A stretch of DNA of 64,000 nt from Rhizodiscina lignyota (GCA_010015805.1 ML978128.1:1426001-1490000), one strand, 5' to 3'; positions 22,299 through 53,315 are shown, counted from the stretch's first letter. Numbers and translations are program-made. The notes: generated by a model from the sequence alone, not told the origin.

Positions 22299-22586
22299 GT
22301 TAGATATGGCTCAAATAAATTCAACATGGCCTCGTGTACCTTCTGTGAGACCTTCAGGGTCTGTCATGACTTATATTATAATGGAGCATGATAGTGGAGC
22401 ACGTTGTGGGAAATGCAAAGGAAATTAAGTTGCAAGCGTTGTTTTGTGTTTGATATTCGGGGGTGCATGTTAAAGCCCGCCGCAAAGCTGTTGCTACATT
22501 TTTATATACAGTCGGGAAACGCCCTGCCAGCCAACCAGTCTCTACTTCGCCCATCGGCCATCCTCAGTTCGAGATCTCTGATTTCC

Positions 22587-41466: not shown

Positions 41467-44160
41467 ATGATGTATTTGGGAGCAGGAAGAAGCTCTTGCA
41501 GGGCAGCCTTTGGGGCCAGTCAAGCGCGTCTTCGCCAACTCCAACCTGCCCTTTCGAGGAAGTCAGCGTAAGTATATAGCGTTTGAGGATGATATATCTA
41601 ATCTGACAGATCCCAGACCTTTATCGAGCGCCTTCGTGCGTCCCGTACCACCTCTTATTCGTTATGCAAGTCTCGAAGCAGGTGACGACAAGAGCGGTCA
41701 TATCAAAGCTGGCCCAAATGAAGGCATTCTGTTCTTCGATAGTAAGTATAAATGTACTTTATGTCATAGTTAATCTAACATGGTACACAGCTGTTTTCCC
41801 CTTGAGATTACGGTGGCTGTTCCGATTGCCATTCCAAGAGACGAAACTCGATAGCTTAACGAAGCAACTTGAACGGCCTGCAATTGCAGGTGTCGATCCC
41901 CTTGATGTGATATCCAAAGTGAACCTCGAAAGAGCAAACTTTGACGTCGTAGAGTTGCTACCAAGATTGAAGGAGGGCGGGGCTTTTGTCAAGTTCACCC
42001 ATAATCAAAATGTCTCCTTGGAGACAATTGAAACCGCGGTCAAGGCATACCTAAAGGAAACCAGACCTCACCCATGGTGGGCGCCATTTACACGAATGCG
42101 AGCGAACCGTGTGCAGGGAAAGCCATGGGTCGAAGATCTCTACTCCAGGCTTCCTTCAACAAGAGTAAAAGTGGAGTTTCTTCCACCGAATCCAGGAGAA
42201 ACGGCAGCAGAGCTCTCTGAGGAACAGCTGTATAGCTTCTTTAGACGTTATGGAAAGCTTGCAAATATTGTCCCTCAACCATCCGATTCCAAGGTTTTAC
42301 CGCGATTCGCTTATGTTGATTTCACGGCAATCCGACGTGCCATAATGGCCAAAAACTGCATGCATGGCTATCTGGTATCAGAGGCTGAGGGAGGTGGTAA
42401 AACGGGTACCGTTCTGCGATTAAGTTATGAGGCGAAAGTCAAAGCCCACTGGATTCGAGACTGGATCTTTGGTCATCCGAGAATCGTCATTCCCGCGCTG
42501 ATCGCTATTGCTGGTGCCATCACTGTTGCAGTGTTTGATCCGTGAGTTCCAGCTCTAGGTATCATTTTTGTGATTCCATTATGCTAACGACTACAGGATC
42601 CGTACTTTCTTCATCAAGGCCCATATATTAGGCACTTTTCATATCACCAACAACCGAATATGGCGCTGGTTTAGAGCACAGGCAGCTGATTTGTTCACCT
42701 TCCGTCGAAGACGTGATGAGGACGCCGGTATGCAAGCCATCTGGAGCGAGCGGAACGAAGACATTGAGAAAATCCGGACATGGCTCATGGAGACGGCGGA
42801 TACCTTTATTATTGTGCAAGGTCCACGTGGCTCTGGTAAAAGGGAGTTGGTTCTCGATCAAGCTCTCAAGACAAGAAAACTGAAGCTCGTCATTGACTGT
42901 AAGCCAATTCAAGAAGCTCGTGGAGATTCTGCAACCATTTGCGCTGCAGCGGCAGAAGTAGGGTACCGCCCAGTCTTCTCCTGGATGAACAGTATCAGCG
43001 GTATGATTGACCTTGCGGCTCAAGGAGCGGCTGGGGTCAAGACTGGATTCTCCGAGACGCTTGACTCTCAACTTGCAAAGATTTGGAATAACACAGCCAC
43101 GGCTCTGAAACAGATTGCCCTTGAAGGGAGAAGCAAGGACGACAAGGATGCTCATATGAGTGAAGATGAGTACCTCGAAGCACACCCAGAGAAGCGCCCA
43201 GTAGTCGTGATCGACAACTTTCTCCACAAGGCTCAGGAGAGCAATGTCGTTTACGATAAAATCTCGGAATGGGCCGCTCGCCTCACAACAGCGAATATCG
43301 CTCATGTCATCTTCCTGACAAACGACGTTTCTTTCTCAAAGTCACTGAGCAAAGCGCTACCAGACCGAGTCTTCCGACAGATCTCTCTGGGCGACTGCTC
43401 ACCAGAAGCAGCGAAGCGCTTCGTTATTAGCCATCTAGATGCTGATCCCGCCGAAGCCGAGGCTGAAGTTGATGGAGAGAAGAAGCTCACACCATCTCAG
43501 CGTCGGAAGGACCTCGTAGAGCTTGACGAATGCATCAATGTACTTGGAGGGAGACTAACAGATCTCGAATTCCTCGCACGACGAATCAAAACTGGTGAAA
43601 CTCCAAAAAGAGCCGTCGCCCAGATTGTCGAGCAGAGTGCTTCCGAGATTATGAAGATGTACATCTTCGGAATGGACGATGCAACGCGGAAGTGGGGTCC
43701 GGAACAAGCATGGCATTTAATCCGCCAGCTCGCTCAGCAAGATGCGCTTCGGTACAATGAGGTGCTGTTATCTAGCCCGTTCAGTTCCAATGGCGATGCT
43801 GTTCTCCAAGCCCTGGAACAAGCCGAACTCATCTCTATCGTCTCCACCAACGGTCGTCCGCAAGCTATCAAACCAGGGAAGCCGGTTTTCCAACCGGCGT
43901 TCCGCATGTTGACAGAAGATAGAGTATTAAAAGCGAGGCTTGACCTTGCGATCTTGTCGGACCAGATCAAGTCAGAGAACGCGAGCATCGACAAGTGCGA
44001 GAACGAGTTGAAATTGCTCGGTGAGTTGCCTAGGCGGCCGTCTGAGATTTCCGGGCGGATCGTTTGGTTGTTGGGCAAGCTGAAGGCGAGTCAGGAAAAG
44101 GTTGAGGCCTTCGAGATGGAGAGCGCAGGACTCAAGAAGATCTTGCAACAGGAGTACTGA
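41467..44160 (+). CDS. YME2: Mitochondrial escape protein 2 (RRM plus P-loop domain)
   Basis: PRLKEGGAFVKF, GKPWVEDL, RRM, HPRIVIP TM, QGPRGSGKRELV, IDLAAQG, GGRLTDLE; 3 introns. Confidence 0.93.
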
Positions 44161-47144
44161 GTAACAATTCCATTTACACGGAGGACCATGCAGGAAATAC
44201 CACAGAATTCGACTCACTTGGTCGCGAATGTACATATATAACATCTCTGTATGAATAAACGTGTTCGAAACTGGTTTGGTACAGCTCTCACGTCACATCC
44301 ATGTTGGGGCACTAATCGGGTTTTAGTATACTTTACAGTAGTCTGAGCTCGTATTCGAATGTCGCCTGGATGTACTTGCTATGCATAGTTCGGACTTTGA
44401 AAATTGTGCAATGTTGTACGATAATTGCATTCTCCAGCAGCGCACAACACCAGACCTTTCAATAATTGATTGTCATCTGGGGCCTATCATGTACTTTCGT
44501 ACACCAAACCGTTGGCGCATGTGCGAGCTCTTGAGGTTCGTCGCCGATCCAGTCTCAACACTTCCCATAGATCCTTGGTGGCACCACTGGCTCTTCCTCT
44601 TTGCGTACTTTTGGATCGCTCTGACAGCTGGCTCAATCACCCCGAGTTTTCTGAGGCTCTTCACGATGGGTACGACCCGCTTCCTGTAATCTTTCCGCAT
44701 GGCCTAGCCATGTTACTACATGTGCCCTATTGTCGCGCATGGTTGCAGCAGCATGGCTCAAGAGCTCTGTCTCATCCAGTGATACAGCATAGCCGGGTTT
44801 GCGCTGTTTGGCAGCCTCGTGCGTCTATCGCCTGAAGGCTCCTGTAGAAGTCCGCGACGTCGATAGAAGGGTCGATCTGTTATTCGGCAGGAGTTCTTTC
44901 ATGCCGCTCGCGCTTGTTGACACTTTCATACACCCATCATTAGAATGCTTCTGCGGCCGGGTAGCGCGGTGGATTGAAGGCTCGTTGTGCGATCACTGGG
45001 AGCTCCTTCTTCACCACTCGCACCAACTTGAAGCTCGTTACGCAACCCAGCTAAAGTTCCTACTTGGCCGCCGTGTGCCAATGGAACTCTTGCTATGATC
45101 GCCCAAATACCCGTTTGACCGGCCTACAACGTCGGTCGGAGGCTTGTTGCGATGCATCAGGGAGGCCCTTTTTGTGACATGAACGCCGACTGGAGCATTG
45201 CTTCCATTAGCCGAGCCCTTCTGCTGCTGGCCTGCAACGCCAACCGAAACCTTGCTGCGCAATCCTTTGGGTGTTCCACTTCGGTAGCTCACGCTGATGG
45301 GAATATTACTTCGATCATCCGAGCGTTTCTTCTTGCGAAGCCCAAGGTCGACTGGAGGCTCGTGCAGCAGCATCCTCAAGTGAGGCTCTCTGGGGACCTT
45401 GATATCATAGATCGCCCGGTAATGTTCGCATGTTCGCCGCGCCCACCTCTCCTTTGGATTGAGATGCTTGTTTGTTCTGGTCTTCAGGCCCCCGCCGATG
45501 CTTGTTGCGGAGCCAACTGAGAGGAGGGAGGATATATATACCTCGAAACACTGTATCCCTAAGTGCGATATCGGAAAAGAGACGGTGAGTAGCTACCAAT
45601 GCCCAAAGTGGAAATGTTGATGTCGTCCTAAGAAGCGTCAGGTCGAGTTATCGCCGAGATCGGTTCGTCGCCCGGGTCAAAGCTCGTTGGTGCTGTAAAT
45701 ATTCTTGCTGAACAAATGCCTGCATATTCATCCAGTGCTGAAAGCGCAATCATGGCGTCGTAGACAGGCAGGAGGTAGGAGGAAGCGAGATCGTTGTTTG
45801 ATGATAGAGGTGATAGGGGTGTATATATCTCGAAGAACCCTTGTGTTGATACGGAGATGAGAACGGTGCTAGTCCAGTTAGTTACTATCGTCCATTAGAG
45901 AGCAAGAATCCAAATAAGCAAGTCAGCTCCAACTACCAAGCAGCCAACCTAGCTTTGTAGAACCGCAGAATTGCTTATGCTCTAGATCCCATCTGACCGT
46001 TGCCTTGAGGAACCCCTTGGTCCAACAGCCACACGCCAGCCATACGCCTAAATTAGATGGCAGCTTGATCAGTCTTGGCCGGAAAGCAGTGCGCCGTTGT
46101 CGATTGGTTTGCAGAGCTAGAATCTTAAACAATATATTTGCGAAGGCTACGACTGGCATGAACGACTAGAAGAGGCTCTAACTGGATTATGTAACAAACG
46201 GTCAATGAATAGTATGAACTGGTCGTAGAAGTGTTATGTCGATCGGAGTATGAAGTTCCCACGGACACAAAACGACAGAGATGGGGCCTCCACTGAGTAG
46301 CGCAAGAGGCCTTCAATTGACGTTCCGGGTTGTTTGCAGAAGAATTCCAAGGGGGGGAACTGAAGCCAACGACCGCGGTAGGCAGCCTTTGATGTAAAAG
46401 ACTTCATTATAAGCGATTACCATGAGCGTGATGGAGATTCTGTGTCGGAGATAAATGTCGGTTCAGACCTTGAGGCAGTTGATAATAGTCGACTTGACGT
46501 CGGCATTAATGTGAAACAGTTTCGGACTTCTGTGTCAGGTCAAAAAGAGGCCTTCGGGGACGGACATGGATTTCAATCCCTGCACTAAGACGTCTTACCC
46601 TGCAGGCCCTCGAATTGTTAATGCGTTTGTTGGAGCTCATGAACATGCCAGCTCCGACTATGGCATCGATCCAATGCATGAAGAGTGATCACTCGTGTTA
46701 TTGTCGTCTCGGTAGCCCGCTGTCTAGATGGAAAAGTGGCTTGGCCGGGTCACTCTAGCGTAACGCTTCGACCCGTGAACTTTTATATTAGACCACTACC
46801 CAATTCATTAGAGATCTTTCAAAAATAGTTGAACAATCGTAGAAATAAAATACTTCAGAGTAAAATGAGAATTATAATATATTCAACATAGTTGTGAGAT
46901 ACGGCAGCTAGAATGTTGGGCCCCGTTTTTGCCCAAAGGGCCATTTTCCAGCGCCACATCAACGCTGGATTCTGCTGAGCCGATAGAGTATGCCTGACTA
47001 AGGAAATATGTACTCCGTAACCGGTAACAAAAATCCCTGACAGCTGATTGGACAAGGCCACAGTTTAAGTGTGGGGTGAGCGAGATGGCTATATATACTA
47101 ACTCGACATTCCAACAAGCTGTACTTTCGGGATTGTGGTGTAGT

Positions 47145-47195
47145 GTGGGTAGCTCCAAAATTCGTCAAATAAACTCAAATTCTAACGTCCAATAG
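47145..47195 (+). other. Spliceosomal-type intron 1 in the tRNA D-loop (51 nt)
   Basis: GTGGGT donor, TTCTAAC branch site, CAATAG acceptor; removal restores the AGTGGTA D-loop. Confidence 0.8.
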
Positions 47196-47215
47196 GGTAG
47201 CACGTAACGTTGTGG

Positions 47216-47240
47216 CTTATGCTTCGACATGGACTCAGTT
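47216..47240 (+). other. Canonical tRNA (TSEN-type) intron at position 37/38 (25 nt)
   Basis: Starts one nt after the GTG anticodon; removal restores loop TTGTGGC; its 3' part CTCAG can pair partly with TTGTG. Confidence 0.8.
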
Positions 47241-47253
47241 CCGTTCCGACCCC

Positions 47254-47310
47254 GTAAGTTCTGGTCTTATTGGCTCTTTGTTCCACCAAATTCTAACGGT
47301 AAATGGATAG
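47254..47310 (+). other. Spliceosomal-type intron 2 in the tRNA T-stem (57 nt)
   Basis: GTAAGT donor, TTCTAAC branch site, GATAG acceptor; removal restores the CCCGG/CCGGG T-stem. Confidence 0.82.
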
Positions 47311-47857
47311 GGTTCGATTCCGGGCAATCCCACACTCTTTTTTTGCGCTTTCTTTATCATATATCTCCGCCCATTCCATCCAGGTTCGCACTTGAAGAGA
47401 AATCCTCTCTATTTTTTTTGGCTGCGAGAATGAATGTGAATCTTGCATATTGAAAGGCTGATGACGCGGAGGCAAATTTGTGAAATAGTATTTTATTTTT
47501 GGACTGTAGTGGACTGCTGTGCCTCATCTCACAGGTGATCTTTGAATATGCCTGTCGCGCTTAACCATAGTGGTATACCCGGCGGAACAGCAAATAAATA
47601 CTGGAATAAAAGAGAAACCCTTTGAATGCTGCAAGTTTGATGATTACTGTTCATAGGTGTCACGAAGGAAGAGATTCTGCATGACTACTATGTATGTGAG
47701 GTTATTCGGCCGTGATACGAACATCGCAAAGAACGTTCTATTGATGAAAAGACGAAGAAACGAAGAGACGGAGGGAGAAATAACCCAGATAGTACGCTAA
47801 AGCGATTCAAGATAGTTAGGTTGGAATATATCAACACTCCTCAAACTCTGCTCCAAC

Positions 47858-47928
47858 AACTTACGGGGTCGGAACGGAACTGTGTCCATGTCGAAGCATT
47901 CCACAACGTTCCCGTGCTACCCTATTGG
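47858..47928 (-). repeat. Inverted copy of the tRNA-His middle exon with flanking splice sites
   Basis: Reverse complement reads ccaatag|GGTAGCACGGGAACGTTGTGGaatgcttcgacatggacacagttCCGTTCCGACCCC|gtaagtt and matches 47189-47260 with three small differences. Confidence 0.88.
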
Positions 47929-48429
47929 GAGCAAAAGCAGCCATGAGAGGGACACCCGATAAGGATAATTAGTTGCTCGGCTCGAGTGTAGCGTGGCAGG
48001 TCATGTTGCAAACACATTTGGTAGCAGCCAAGGTATAGCAAGACAATCGGTCTGTAGTACATGCACAGAATGCCAATTTAAATTTTGTAGACTAGTCCGA
48101 GAGTGAATCTGGGATCTGAAGTACACGAAGTTTGAAGATCGGGTAATGCCCAGACGAAAAGGCTCCATAGCTATGCATTGCATCCTGAGATCCACTTTTT
48201 GCGTCAAAATCGGACTGAAACCCCAGCATATGCTTGAAGTGCGCTCAGATGCTTGAAACAACGGAATTTGAAGAGAAGGAAAAGGCAACCGCTGCGACCA
48301 TACCCGTGCCTTCCGAAATCATGGTAGGTCGCCGCACAAGAGTTCTATGTCCAAGCCTGGTGTACAAGTCGTCGAAAGTAATTGGAGTTGGGTTGTTCGG
48401 AGGTCAAGAGTGCCTCGGATTTCGAGGTC

Positions 48430-50049
48430 TTAGTGCTGAGGGGCGTCGCGGCCACGTCCACCCCTGGAACCGCCTCGGCCACCACGATATCCATCGCCAC
48501 CGCGATCGCCACGGAATCCTCCACGGCCACGTCCACGACCTTCTCCACGAGGTCCTCCCCTACCACGGTAGCCTCCACGATTGTCGCCTTGGGGACCTCC
48601 TCGTCCACGGGCTGGAGCGCGATGGTGGACCTCATGGAATCCGTCGCTGCCATTCGTGTTGACTGTCTTGATTGTGTTCGCCTCCATCTCAGCAGCGTCG
48701 TCCGCCCAACTCTGTGTGCTCTGCACCGGTGCGGGTTCGTGGGGGCTCTCAGTCTCAGCCGGGTCACGGGGAATCATCTCGAAGCTCTCCGCCAACGGAT
48801 CCTCATCGCCGGGTGCTTTGGTGTCCCACTGACTCTCTCCCGCTGCGTTCGCTGCATCATCGCCAGCGCTTGCTTCAGGTGGTGCCTGCGGTGTATCCGT
48901 AACATCAGCTGCTTCCGTGCCATTTGGTATCTGAGTTACCGTATCAATCTCGGTGAGTCCAGCGTGCGCCACTGTTGGGTCGGTGCCAGTCGCTATCGTC
49001 TCTTGCTCTGGTGGCGTAGGGTCAGCAGCAGCGACATCATCTACCCATGCTTCCTCTGCGGCGAATGGTGCTTCTTCGAGGGCGGATTTCTTGATTTGGG
49101 CGTCTGTTTTGACCCAGTCAGCCTCAGTCCTATTTGCATCATCAACTTGATACGCACATGTGATGTTCAGGACGGTTCCTTCAGTAGAAGGAACACTCTC
49201 CTCGGTACCGTCGATGAGCTTCTCCGCAGCAGCCACGGCAGCAGGGTCACCACCATACACGAGGAGTAGAGCACCCTCGAATGCCTTTGTCTCCTCTGAA
49301 TCATCGTCCTCTCGCTGCCTTCTCGCTGCCGCGGCGCGCAAGAACCTAGAGAGCACCAGCAAACGCTGCTTGAAGGACTTCTGTGCCTCGATAGCAGCCT
49401 CCGCCTTGACAGTCTCCTTCATCTTCTCCAATTCTGCCTTATGTCCCGTTTGTAGAAGCTCTTTCTCTGCTGATAGCCGGTGCTGATACTCCTGCTCGAA
49501 CTTCTTGCACTGCGCCAGCTGTTCCTCAAATTGGGCGAGCTGAGCCTGTAGGCCGGGTTTCTTGAGGGCTTGAGCTCTCTGATCGGCATTGATCTTGCGG
49601 GTATTGACGAGATCATCGAGAGAGAGATCTGGGAATTCGGCTATGATGGCATCGACTTTCTGCATGAGGTTCTGCGACACAGTTAGTGCCCTGCAAACTG
49701 GTCGCGTGATAGCGCGTCAAAATTTGACAGAGGCCGTACAAGCTTCTTGTTGACATTGCGAATGTTCCTTGACGCGTCCAGTTAGAATATGGGCTCTGGA
49801 CCATGAATATCATGAGATCGGAGGCTTGTTTACTCACTTTTGCAGCTCCTTGATGTAAGGATTCTCAGAGCCTCCTTCGACACCGTTGGACTTTCCATCC
49901 TGGCTTGGGGTATCTGGACGATTTTCTGATGTAGGAGTAGCTACAGAGCTCACTGCCGCTGCCTCAGCCTTGGCCTTCTTCTTGCGAGCGCTCTTAGATT
50001 CGGAGGCCGCGGTGGAGTTCGGTGGGTTCGAGACGGCGTCTGCGGACAT
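48430..50049 (-). CDS. Caprin-like RNA-binding protein (YAG7/Cpn1-type) with C-terminal RGG box
   Basis: SKSARKKKAK, YIKELQK|NIRNVNKKL, KINADQRAQALKKP, FLRAAAARR, SWADD, DGFHEV, RGG repeats. Confidence 0.75.
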
Positions 50050-50506: not shown

Positions 50507-51579
50507 CTACTCGTTCGCGTACTTTAAGCCGAAATTACCACCTGTCACCTTTCCCAAGTCCACAGCGTACATAGTCCTGCCATCCGCAACTTGCGAGTTC
50601 GCGTGGAAAACGAGCTGTGTCCCATCTCCGGTAACATCTGCACCGCCCGGGCTTGCCAGAGTGTTATCGCCCGTACTAAGTAGAGGCCCAGTCTTGGTAT
50701 ATGGCCCCGTGATGCTGCTCGCAGTTGCGAAGTTAATGTCGTAATCAGGGCTGTTCCAGCAGTTGCTGCTGAAGAACAGGTAATAGGTTCCGCCGACCTT
50801 CGCTAGACTTGGTGCCTCGACGAGAGGTCCATCGGCTGTAGACCGGTCGAGGATTTGTGTCGCAGAGCCCATCAAAGTGAAGCCATCTGCTGCGACCTTT
50901 TGCAGCATGATGGGGGTAGGGATGATCGGGGTATTGGTGTTGCCACACGAGCCACCATTGCCGATGGAATTGCCGTCGACTTTCCAAAGGAGGTAACGGG
51001 TGCCGTCCTCATCTTTAAAACCCGATGGGTCAATGGCACCACCCTGCTCGAGGGGGCAGGCGAGTGGTTCATCAGATATTGGCGAATACGGGCCTTCAGG
51101 CTTCGATGACAGCGCGTGGCCAACGCAGTGAAGAGTCCTGTTGATCTGTCCCTTTTGGGGAGTATGGAGAGCAGTGTAGTACATCAGATATTGACCGTCA
51201 TCCTATTCAGCTGTCAGTGAGGATCAAGCGACCAATTGTAAATGTGACCACGTACCCTTTTGAATACATCTGGTGCCCACACCTGAGGATCCGGAGTGTG
51301 TACCCAGGGAGGAAGTTTTGGAAGTGCATCGTAACCGTCTTGCACTGACCACTTCGAAAAATCACTGGACTTCGCCATTTGGATATGAACTCCATTGCCA
51401 GATGTTGCGAATGCAAACCAGGACTTGCCATCCTGGAGTATGCTTGGATCGGGGAAATTTGTCTGAAACACCGGGTTGGCAGAGATTCCAGGGGCTGCAG
51501 CGTCCCTCTTCATAGGCAACGCGGATGCCAGGCCAATGAGGGCGGCCAATGCGGTCGGAAGGGAGAATATAGAGCGCAT
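50507..51579 (-). CDS. Secreted glycoside hydrolase family 43
   Basis: Signal peptide, NFPDPSI, VWAPDV, GGAIDPSGF, LVEAP, SPGG; one intron near 51204-51254. Confidence 0.92.
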
Positions 51580-53315
51580 CGTTACAGAGCAAATAATATG
51601 TACAAGTGAAAGTGTGGAGCGAATAATATGTACAGGACCGGAAACTTCAAGCAATGATTGGATGAATGTAAATTAGCGAGAGAATGATAGACTTTGGATT
51701 CAGATGATCATGCTCTTCTTGACGCTGATACTGCAGAGTATTTAATAAACAATCAAGTCGAAACTGTGCCGTCGGACTTCGGTGAATGCTGTGAACCAAA
51801 TTATTTTGCACAGCAAGCAAGCGAGCCTCTGCAAGGCGCGTTTGAGGAGCTTGGGGTGGAGGAGTTGCCGCAGCAAAGCCACAGCAAAGCGGAGGATTGA
51901 CTGTGGTTCACACAGCCCAACGTGCGGTAATCTGGTAGACGATATCGCGAATGAAGATTACTAGCGCAGATTGATGATAATGGTGGAATTTGAGAAAGAC
52001 GTGAGACCGGAAATTCGAAATATCCAAGCTATTTACCTTTCAATTGAATGTTCCTGCCTCAATGTCTACCAGGTGGTGATGCTGTAAACAACGTGTGGCG
52101 GAAAGCAAGGATTCCACGCTGGGAAGAGATCTTCACCAGGTATCGTCCGGCCTACTTCTGAGCCACCGTTTCTTGCGACATCCAATGAAGACTCGAGAGG
52201 CGAGAGCGAATCTTGAAACTTTGAAACCATCCAAGAAAGCAGCGGTAGCTTGGCCTTCGAAATTCACCCTATTGTGGGTGGCGTGGGGCTTCGCCGGACT
52301 GATTGCTGGAAAGCGAGTAAGTCAGAAGGCTACGCATTCCAGTTTCTCGCATGCCTCTCCTGCACGACACTAAGGTCTCTAAAGACAGACCCAAATAAAG
52401 AAGTCCGGGGCCGCAGACAGTGGTTGTCGGAGTCCGATGAGCGGACATATTGAAAGCAATGCTCTCGAAGGAACGGAGGATGGTTTCTGTGGGGGCTGCG
52501 CAATCGCACCGCCTTACCGCCTTGTACACTGAAACAACATGTTCCCAGGAATAAAACAAGGTGTGGCTGAAATTGCTATTCAGAGCGCTGTTTCGATTAC
52601 GCTAAGGCAGGGTCGAGTTAGTGCGTTCGACTGTCGTCTATCATTTTGTTTCGAGTCTCCAAGATTGATGGCGAAGAAGAACCTGCTCAGTGCCAATCCA
52701 TTCACATCGTTCGGAAACCGACAATGCCGATGCATACACGGTGAAGACTGGAGGGTAGTGGGGCCTTTGAGCTCAGTGACTGGCAGTGCGCATTCGAATA
52801 CATATGGCGAAGTGGGTTAAAGCATGTGCGGGGCTCAGGTTGAGGAAAGTGAAGAAACTGAGAGTCGGAAGTAATGTTCAGCCGCATACCTAAGACGGGG
52901 ACGGGAGGCTGCATGGCGTACGCGTGGAGCCCAACGCCGGATCGCTTCGGGGGTCACGCACCGAGAGGCTGGAAGGCCAGGCACCGCGACCTAGGTGCTT
53001 GCGGCCCTGGATTTTTGGAACAGGGCGCTAAAGTCGCTGCTTCCCTTCCTGCCAAGACTCGAGAGACCTTATCGCAATGACTTTTCCGCACTGATATCAA
53101 CTCCGCGACCTCGAGACTTAGCTCTGCCAGCGTGTGGTGGAGTTATCTGGAAACGCCAATGAATTCACGAATAACTTGATATATTGGTCTGTCCGCAGCC
53201 TCTCATACCTCTGCGCGGCGCTTGCAAAGCGATCATGTTGACGCTAGTCGACCCAACACCATCACCACCGCGATTATTTCAAAGGGGTTCAGAATCACAA
53301 CAATAGCCATACACG

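Follow-up and report, generated by a model that had tools for sequence, protein, structure and literature searches.

When a tRNA gene carries introns with the marks of the spliceosome, which RNA polymerase would make its transcript, and by what route could that transcript become a tRNA? The question is raised by a locus in a 64,000-nucleotide stretch of the Rhizodiscina lignyota genome (GCA_010015805.1 ML978128.1:1426001-1490000; the whole stretch is called the window here, and positions are counted from its first nucleotide), which is nuclear DNA of a filamentous ascomycete (Pezizomycotina). Spliceosomal introns are usually regarded as features of RNA polymerase II (Pol II) transcripts, with fungal small nuclear RNAs (snRNAs) as oddities, and tRNA introns as being removed only by protein enzymes. 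At 47129–47332 on the plus strand, however, lies a tRNA-His(GTG) gene with two spliceosomal-type introns and one canonical tRNA intron, which at the level of its sequence is real, if unusual. We regard the chances as about even that it is a nuclear tRNA-His(GUG) gene of the RNA polymerase III (Pol III) type that gained two spliceosomal-type introns on top of the canonical one it had inherited. This view is built on what can be read from the DNA itself: how the gene is put together, its intron signals, the Pol III-type signals on its flanks and its homology to an unsplit gene.

Anatomy of the split tRNA-His gene

The gene is hidden in its genomic form. ARAGORN, with its intron option on or off, reported no tRNA in the genomic window, and the Rfam model RF00005 gave no match at the gathering score across the window, nor at E values up to 10 over 47000–48000, where the only match of any kind was a meaningless one of 13 bits to a viral family on the opposite strand. 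After 47145–47195 and 47254–47310 had been deleted in silico by coordinates, ARAGORN, the only one of the two tools applied to the spliced sequence, called a tRNA-His(GTG) that was clean and had an intron of 25 nt at 37/38; when either segment was deleted singly the calls were distorted only. The first-pass annotation had read the locus as a tRNA-His split by two spliceosomal-type introns, and the call on the spliced sequence bears out that reading. Both ARAGORN and Rfam miss the gene as it stands in the chromosome, and 'missing' tRNA genes in fungal annotations may merit a second look. Apparent pieces of tRNA-His at 22392–22409 and 36084 were chance motif matches.

The three exons are 16, 58 and 22 nt long, and the introns, in order, 51, 25 and 57 nt. 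In the spliced product 20 of the 21 stem pairs are standard, the exception being a U-C at the top of the anticodon stem, which is also present in the unsplit homologue described below. Eukaryotic tRNA-His is identified by a discriminator A73 together with a G-1 that is not encoded in the gene, and this is the set found here: the discriminator, at 47332, is A, and position -1 carries C, so that G-1 is not encoded. The cloverleaf was not recovered in minimum free energy (MFE) folds of the precursor, which were left out of account.

In the unsplit homologue (L013), at 573–669 on the plus strand of a 2.4-kb metagenome contig, the tRNA-His gene is continuous but for a canonical intron of 26 nt, and it scores 47.2 bits with Rfam RF00005 against a threshold of 29. 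Once the canonical introns are removed, 65 of its 71 positions are those of the spliced window product, and outside the acceptor stem all 57 agree. It is also continuous exactly where the window passes from AATAG into exon 2 and from exon 2 into GTAAGT, and by this alignment L013 confirms the predicted exon junctions. The six differences make up three acceptor-stem pairs whose strands are split between exon 1 and exon 3; all three are Watson–Crick in the window gene, and one is A-C in L013. The two canonical introns align only in part, and the two organisms are therefore probably not close; since the mature positions are nevertheless conserved, selection would have acted along most of the lineage. 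Around the L013 gene we found no similarity to the window and no convincing open reading frame (ORF), and a T5 run lies three bases past its discriminator. ARAGORN mis-calls L013 as a tRNA-Ala with a 5-nt intron; the long canonical introns of this tRNA-His family thus already mislead one finder.

L013 is one of 14 loci returned by a metagenome scan with the anticodon loop, a gap, and the 3' anticodon stem to the start of the T-stem; a scan with the 22-nt exon 3 gave 0 matches. None of these 14 loci is a split tRNA-His. Ten (L001–L003, L005–L009, L011 and L014) are chance matches in unrelated, mostly GC-rich DNA. The other three (L004, L010 and L012, at about 572–650) hold one and the same intron-less tRNA-His from a different organism, with an anticodon arm and variable loop as in the window gene.

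The two extra introns were compared with others in the window by collecting candidates whose deletion opens a frame of at least 100 codons that is absent from the unspliced sequence. This yielded 23 candidates with 17 donors, among them GTAAGT (5), GTGAGT (4) and GTGGGT (2). These reference introns have the branch sequence CTAAC, CTAAT or CTGAC with the branch A 8–14 nt from the 3' end (shortest variants), and most are 42–60 nt long. Both tRNA introns match them in every one of these features (GTRNGT, a CTRAY branch 8–14 nt before YAG, and a length of about 42–60 nt). A stricter composite pattern (GTRNGT, 25–45 nt, CTAAC, 5–12 nt, YAG) was found six times on the two strands of the window, where 30 block-wise dinucleotide shuffles gave 0.5 ± 0.8 (maximum 3). 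The tRNA introns, which bound the tRNA exons exactly, account for two of these matches, and ORF-supported introns of protein genes for three. An alternative donor for intron 1, GTAGCT at 47149, also gives a tRNA-His call, with a larger D-loop, and was rejected because it has no G at +5.

A 12-nt sequence around the branch point, CAAATTCTAACG, is common to both introns (47176–47187 and 47287–47298, plus strand) and occurs nowhere else in the window, and the two may therefore have a common origin; no further similarity between them was found beyond this sequence. Intron 1 also has a 7-nt direct repeat, GGGTAGC, at its 5' end (47147–47153) and across its 3' junction (47195–47201, both plus strand), which intron gain could have left as a target-site duplication or as a signature of DNA repair; a repeat of 7 nt is reached by 2.6% of random pairs in the window. 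At intron 2 the search for a target-site duplication gave only 4 common nucleotides, which is at chance level. The start of intron 1 reads as a continued D-arm plus three extra bases.

It might be asked whether the two extra introns are instead ectopic introns of the tRNA type, cut by the tRNA splicing endonuclease at a bulge-helix-bulge (BHB) as in Cyanidioschyzon merolae, nucleomorphs and Archaea. The gene already relies on this enzyme for its 37/38 intron; in fungi, however, this endonuclease reportedly takes its measure from the mature domain and cuts near the anticodon only. In a crude, unvalidated scan that took 49 registers for each intron, no BHB helix was complete, with its 4 central and 3 outer base pairs: the best reached 6 of the 7 pairs, and did so only where the register was off by 1 or 3 nt from cuts that would restore an L013-like tRNA, and MFE folds leave the two junctions apart. 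Ectopic introns in the D- and T-arms are known in eukaryotic tRNA genes, and their excision has been shown, according to the available part of PMC4090602. The same text describes tRNA genes of C. merolae, of cryptophyte and chlorarachniophyte nucleomorphs and of Archaea with up to three introns, those in the D and T arms included, which standard finders miss. Such introns are short (3–24 nt in the nucleomorph example) and are recognised by the endonuclease as an RNA structure, whereas those in the window are 51 and 57 nt long, read GT..CTAAC..AG and, by the crude scan, have no BHB in the right register. Excision of this kind would account neither for the GTRNGT, CTAAC and YAG signals nor for lengths that are typical of fungal introns, and we consider it very improbable.

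Table 1. Features of the tRNA-His locus and its surroundings in the window
Feature	Position	Strand	Evidence or remarks
YME2/RNA12 'mitochondrial escape protein 2' homologue	41568–44160	+	Short GTAAGT/GTGAGT introns; ordinary-looking
ATTGG (reverse CCAAT)	47047–47051	+	141 copies of CCAAT/ATTGG in the window (2.2 per kb), as by chance; probably not part of the gene
Upstream TATA element, TATATATA	47090–47097	+	32–39 nt before the mature 5' end (47129)
Exon 1, 16 nt: 5' acceptor strand, U8, 5' D-stem strand, D-loop to position 16	47129–47144	+	ARAGORN on the spliced sequence; L013 identical in the aligned part except acceptor positions 4–6
A-box-like TGGTGTAGTGTGG	47136–47148	+	Spans the exon 1/intron 1 junction; last four bases are the first four of donor GTGGGT
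Intron 1, spliceosomal type, 51 nt: D-loop, between positions 16 and 18	47145–47195	+	Donor GTGGGT, CTAAC at 47182, branch A 10 nt from 3' end, TAG acceptor
Exon 2, 58 nt: D-arm remainder, anticodon arm with GTG, canonical intron, variable loop, first three T-stem bases	47196–47253	+	33/33 mature positions as in L013
Canonical tRNA intron, 25 nt, after position 37	47216–47240	+	ARAGORN; 26-nt L013 intron at the same site, partial alignment
Intron 2, spliceosomal type, 57 nt: T-stem, between positions 51 and 52	47254–47310	+	Donor GTAAGT, CTAAC at 47293, branch A 14 nt from 3' end, TAG acceptor
Exon 3, 22 nt: B box/T-loop, 3' T-stem strand, 3' acceptor strand, discriminator A	47311–47332	+	ARAGORN on the spliced sequence
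B box GGTTCGATTCC, consensus GGTTCGANTCC	47311–47321	+	Uninterrupted, wholly in exon 3; only exact match in the window; begins at the first base after intron 2
T7 run, putative Pol III terminator	47338–47344	+	5 nt after the discriminator
T8 run	47412–47419	+	74 nt past the T7 run; sense strand
Inverted partial copy: 57 nt of exon 2 (including the canonical intron) and exactly 7 nt of each splice site (CCAATAG, GTAAGTT)	47858–47928	-	blastn, 91.8% over 73 columns
Glycoside hydrolase family 43 (GH43) gene	50507–51672	-	Ordinary-looking

Polymerase III signals and the choice of polymerase

The internal promoter boxes of the gene lie in its D- and T-loops. Their presence in the exons is uninformative about the polymerase, because any working tRNA needs the same nucleotides there; only the contiguity of the boxes in the DNA bears on the question. 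The first-pass annotation had held that the introns leave the Pol III signals intact. For the B box this is correct: GGTTCGATTCC is contiguous, with intron 2 ending just before it. Intron 1, on the other hand, falls inside the A box, which is left nearly uninterrupted, and since one of the two introns is placed in a box, we see no avoidance of the boxes by the introns. It had also been pointed out that the donor of intron 1 recreates an A-box-like TGGTGTAGTGTGG. This sequence is present, starting at +8, and its first 9 nt are exonic and appear to fit the consensus, with the GG that would stand for G18 and G19 supplied by the donor two bases late. The same donor, GTGGGT, is nevertheless found in 2 of the 17 reference donors, and the resemblance may be luck.

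Flanking signals were found on both sides. The TATA element TATATATA and the ATTGG further upstream are both at the places given in the first-pass annotation, and of the two only the former appears informative, the latter having no weight as a signal at its chance-level frequency. TATATATA occurs 6 times on both strands (128 kb of strand), and TATAWAW 22 times (0.17 per kb of strand). In yeast, transcription starts 10–12 nt before the mature tRNA end (available text of PMC5356446), and by this rule the TATA element begins 27–29 nt upstream of the start site, where the TATA-binding protein (TBP) of TFIIIB would sit. Downstream, the T7 run that had been noted after the gene is followed by a T8 run, which may be a back-up Pol III terminator. 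Runs of at least T7 number only 4 on both strands of the 64-kb window, 2 of them being the T7 and T8 here, and at a random site the probability of such a run starting no more than 12 nt away is 0.0004. The positions of the T7, the T8 and the TATA element are clearly non-random.

Within the transcribed region, neither intron has a T-run longer than 3, as the first-pass annotation had observed, and 3 is also the longest run in the gene and its trailer (47129–47337). That the introns are constrained to lack T-runs, as it had gone on to propose, is not supported. Both introns are without T4 or longer in 9605 of 20000 shuffles of their interiors (48%), and the same is true of 14 of the 17 introns with ORF-supported donors, 16 of the 17 being without T5 or longer. 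Fungal Pol III in any case reportedly needs T5 (Schizosaccharomyces pombe) or T6 (Saccharomyces cerevisiae) to terminate, as given in the accessible text of PMC5356446. What does stand is that read-through by Pol III is physically possible, given the contiguous B box, the nearly contiguous A box, the absence of an internal stop, and a TATA element and terminator on the flanks.

A Pol II gene is the alternative, in which a capped transcript driven from the TATA element would be spliced co-transcriptionally like an mRNA and the tRNA then released by RNase P and RNase Z. Splicing by the spliceosome is as a rule coupled to Pol II, and a preprint (10.1101/2025.06.17.660180), in the part available to us, assigns spliceosomal introns to Pol II transcripts. 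Longer terminal exons would moreover ease the splicing of tRNA exons of 16 and 22 nt, and a Pol II-made tRNA exists in Trypanosoma brucei tRNA-Sec (PMC2943599, as excerpted). A TATA element, which is present here, would serve this reading too, but the ATTGG lends it nothing. Nothing visible excludes TFIIIC, TFIIIB and Pol III from the locus, where the B box is intact, the A box at +8 nearly so, and a TATA element stands at about -28. Two of the four longest T-runs of the window (T7 or more), just 3' of the gene on the sense strand, are needed by Pol III only and would be left unexplained. Nor does the locus look like part of an mRNA host gene: no ORF that overlaps or adjoins it has a Pfam match (8 ORFs tested). 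We therefore think transcription by Pol II improbable.

A proposed route through two splicing systems

From the signals described above we infer transcription, the choice of Pol III and splicing by the spliceosome, and we put the whole chain of Pol III transcription with spliceosomal splicing at roughly an even chance. TFIIIC would bind both boxes, of which B is intact and A nearly so, across the 162 nt between them, and TFIIIB with TBP would bind the TATA element. Pol III would then transcribe about 220 nt through both introns, which it could read because no run of T4 or longer lies inside the gene, and would stop at the T7 run (or the T8). The 51-nt and 57-nt introns would be excised by the spliceosome from an uncapped transcript, as in intron-containing fungal U6, and only after this would the cloverleaf form. 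RNase P and RNase Z would trim the ends, the tRNA splicing endonuclease and ligase would remove the 25-nt intron at 37/38, Thg1 would add G-1, and CCA would be added. Given the intact B box, the A box at +8, the TATA element at about -28, the lack of an internal stop and the strong terminators, we infer that nothing visible would keep Pol III off, in so far as its needs are described in the available text of PMC5356446.

Several points weigh against this chain. Intron 1 does interrupt the A box, and the 5' exon has just 16 nt and a short leader, with no cap to aid the binding of U1. Sisodia and colleagues reportedly found in 1987 that Pol III transcripts in mammalian cells are not spliced. The T-runs and the TATA element may be relics of the unsplit ancestor, and intact tRNA-His genes elsewhere in the genome would make the copy in the window dispensable. 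Rearrangement of the region is evident from the neighbouring partial duplicate (Table 1). There is one locus in one genome to support the chain, L013 documenting the unsplit state and not the split one. Finally, the gap between the A and B boxes (162 nt, or 175 nt start to start) is beyond the 31–93 nt found in S. cerevisiae tRNA genes (PMC5356446, in the text available). TFIIIC is however elastic, with the B box as its main determinant, and the B box of yeast SNR6 lies in the 3' trailer (same source), so that a gap of 162 nt is conceivable.

A rival reading is that of a dead or dying copy, in which the insertions inactivated one of several tRNA-His genes, a Pol III RNA is perhaps still made but is left unspliced and degraded, and the remaining signals are relics. 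The inverted partial copy of exon 2, 525 nt downstream of the gene, is fragmentary and suggests local duplication and decay. The genomic sequence goes unseen by ARAGORN and by Rfam even at E values up to 10, and the GGGTAGC repeat brackets intron 1 in the way that an insertion at the DNA level would leave (with the 2.6% chance frequency given above). Against this stand the 57 of 57 positions outside the acceptor stem that are shared with L013, from which the canonical intron has diverged, and an acceptor stem that is perfectly paired; the terminators and the TATA element are also intact. It is implausible that random filler would twice hold GTRNGT, CTAAC and YAG at the right spacing, with 0.5 such matches expected per 128 kb. 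That a dead target of 71 nt should receive two independent insertions is also unlikely, except if the transcript had become a substrate of the spliceosome through the first intron. We consider a dead or dying copy unlikely on balance, though it deserves to be taken seriously.

The inverted copy itself offers a further comparison. Since it retains 7 nt of each splice site, both introns were already present when it arose. Its 33 mature positions have since gained 2 changes, an extra G and a T-to-G, where the gene copy has 0 relative to L013, and this is weak evidence for selection on the gene copy after the introns arrived. The similarity ends abruptly just beyond the splice signals, and neither exon 1 nor exon 3 was found near the inverted copy when up to 2–3 mismatches were allowed.

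The contigs of one sequencing data set, perhaps the source of the window itself, were aligned to 46900–47500 at 80% likeness. A single contig aligned, with zero differences, and a second piece of it, the inverted exon-2 copy, aligned as well, a result that is uninformative about paralogues or intron copies elsewhere, since short exon pieces would probably escape such an alignment.

Returning to the Pol III gene spliced by the spliceosome, the perfect exons, the compensated acceptor stem and the intact flanking signals suggest that it is alive. The two clean introns in a target of 71 nt, hard to obtain by chance in a dead gene, would be easy to obtain if the first had already brought the transcript to the spliceosome. 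A stronger claim is that this is a working, and possibly the only, tRNA-His gene, whose Pol III transcript passes through both splicing systems to give an RNA of 71 nt, and that it is the first natural tRNA to depend on the spliceosome; this we hold tentatively, at somewhat less than an even chance.

Related systems and genomic setting

The locus falls among the spliceosomal introns of Pol III and other genes for non-coding RNA, and the host here is a tRNA. Fungal U6 had been named as precedent in the first-pass annotation and is the right one: S. pombe U6 is made by Pol III and spliced by the spliceosome, and fungal U6 genes are predicted to have up to four introns (PMC5855946, here and below in the part available to us). 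These are short genes for non-coding RNA, made by Pol III, whose introns, at times several unrelated ones per gene, have a 5' splice site, a branch site and a 3' splice site of the canonical kind, and which have a TATA element besides internal A and B elements, a layout that the tRNA-His gene would share; for most of them experimental validation is still called for (PMC5855946). The locus is not a member of the U6 family, there being no Rfam U6 match in the window. It differs from U6 in that the host RNA also needs the protein-only tRNA splicing pathway, and in that a tRNA is not a component of the spliceosome, so that the explanation commonly given, reverse splicing into an RNA of the catalytic centre, is not obviously applicable. 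Genes for U1, U2 and U5, and the rRNA genes of ascomycetes, have likewise been reported to hold spliceosomal introns (PMC5855946). The rRNA genes, which are transcribed by Pol I, provide a case of spliceosomal-type introns in a Pezizomycotina gene that is not transcribed by Pol II (Bhattacharya et al. 2000, via PMC5855946), although both the polymerase and the host RNA differ from those considered here.

We found no paper on spliceosomal introns in nuclear tRNA genes in a full-text search that did not extend to most subscription journals, and the word stem 'spliceosom' is absent from the available part of the tRNA-intron review PMC4090602. One related case is artificial: in an engineered yeast tRNA gene, an actin intron was reportedly removed by the pre-mRNA splicing pathway (Kohrer, Vogel and Domdey, EMBO J 1990). 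If so, a Pol III pre-tRNA served there as a substrate of the spliceosome, which would prove in principle that the proposed pathway can work, though in a construct, unlike the natural gene in the window.

If the tRNA-His transcript is indeed made by Pol III and spliced by the spliceosome, the boundary between the two nuclear splicing systems would be blurred, and the gene would offer a simple model of splicing that proceeds uncoupled from both Pol II and the cap. The filamentous ascomycete spliceosome would then routinely take uncapped Pol III transcripts beyond U6. The locus would also bear on how new introns arise, in that spliceosomal introns could colonise any abundant nuclear RNA, one intron favouring the next gain.

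The tRNA gene lies in a 4.2-kb interval between the end of the mitochondrial escape protein 2 ORF at 44160 and a minus-strand ORF at 48430–49716. The absence of Pfam matches reported above for ORFs at the tRNA locus extends to this whole interval, the sole match among the 8 ORFs tested being that of the GH43 ORF at 50510–51202. On the upstream side, a 476-aa piece (42730–44157) of the neighbouring gene matches 'mitochondrial escape protein 2' of many Pezizomycotina, with up to 76% identity.

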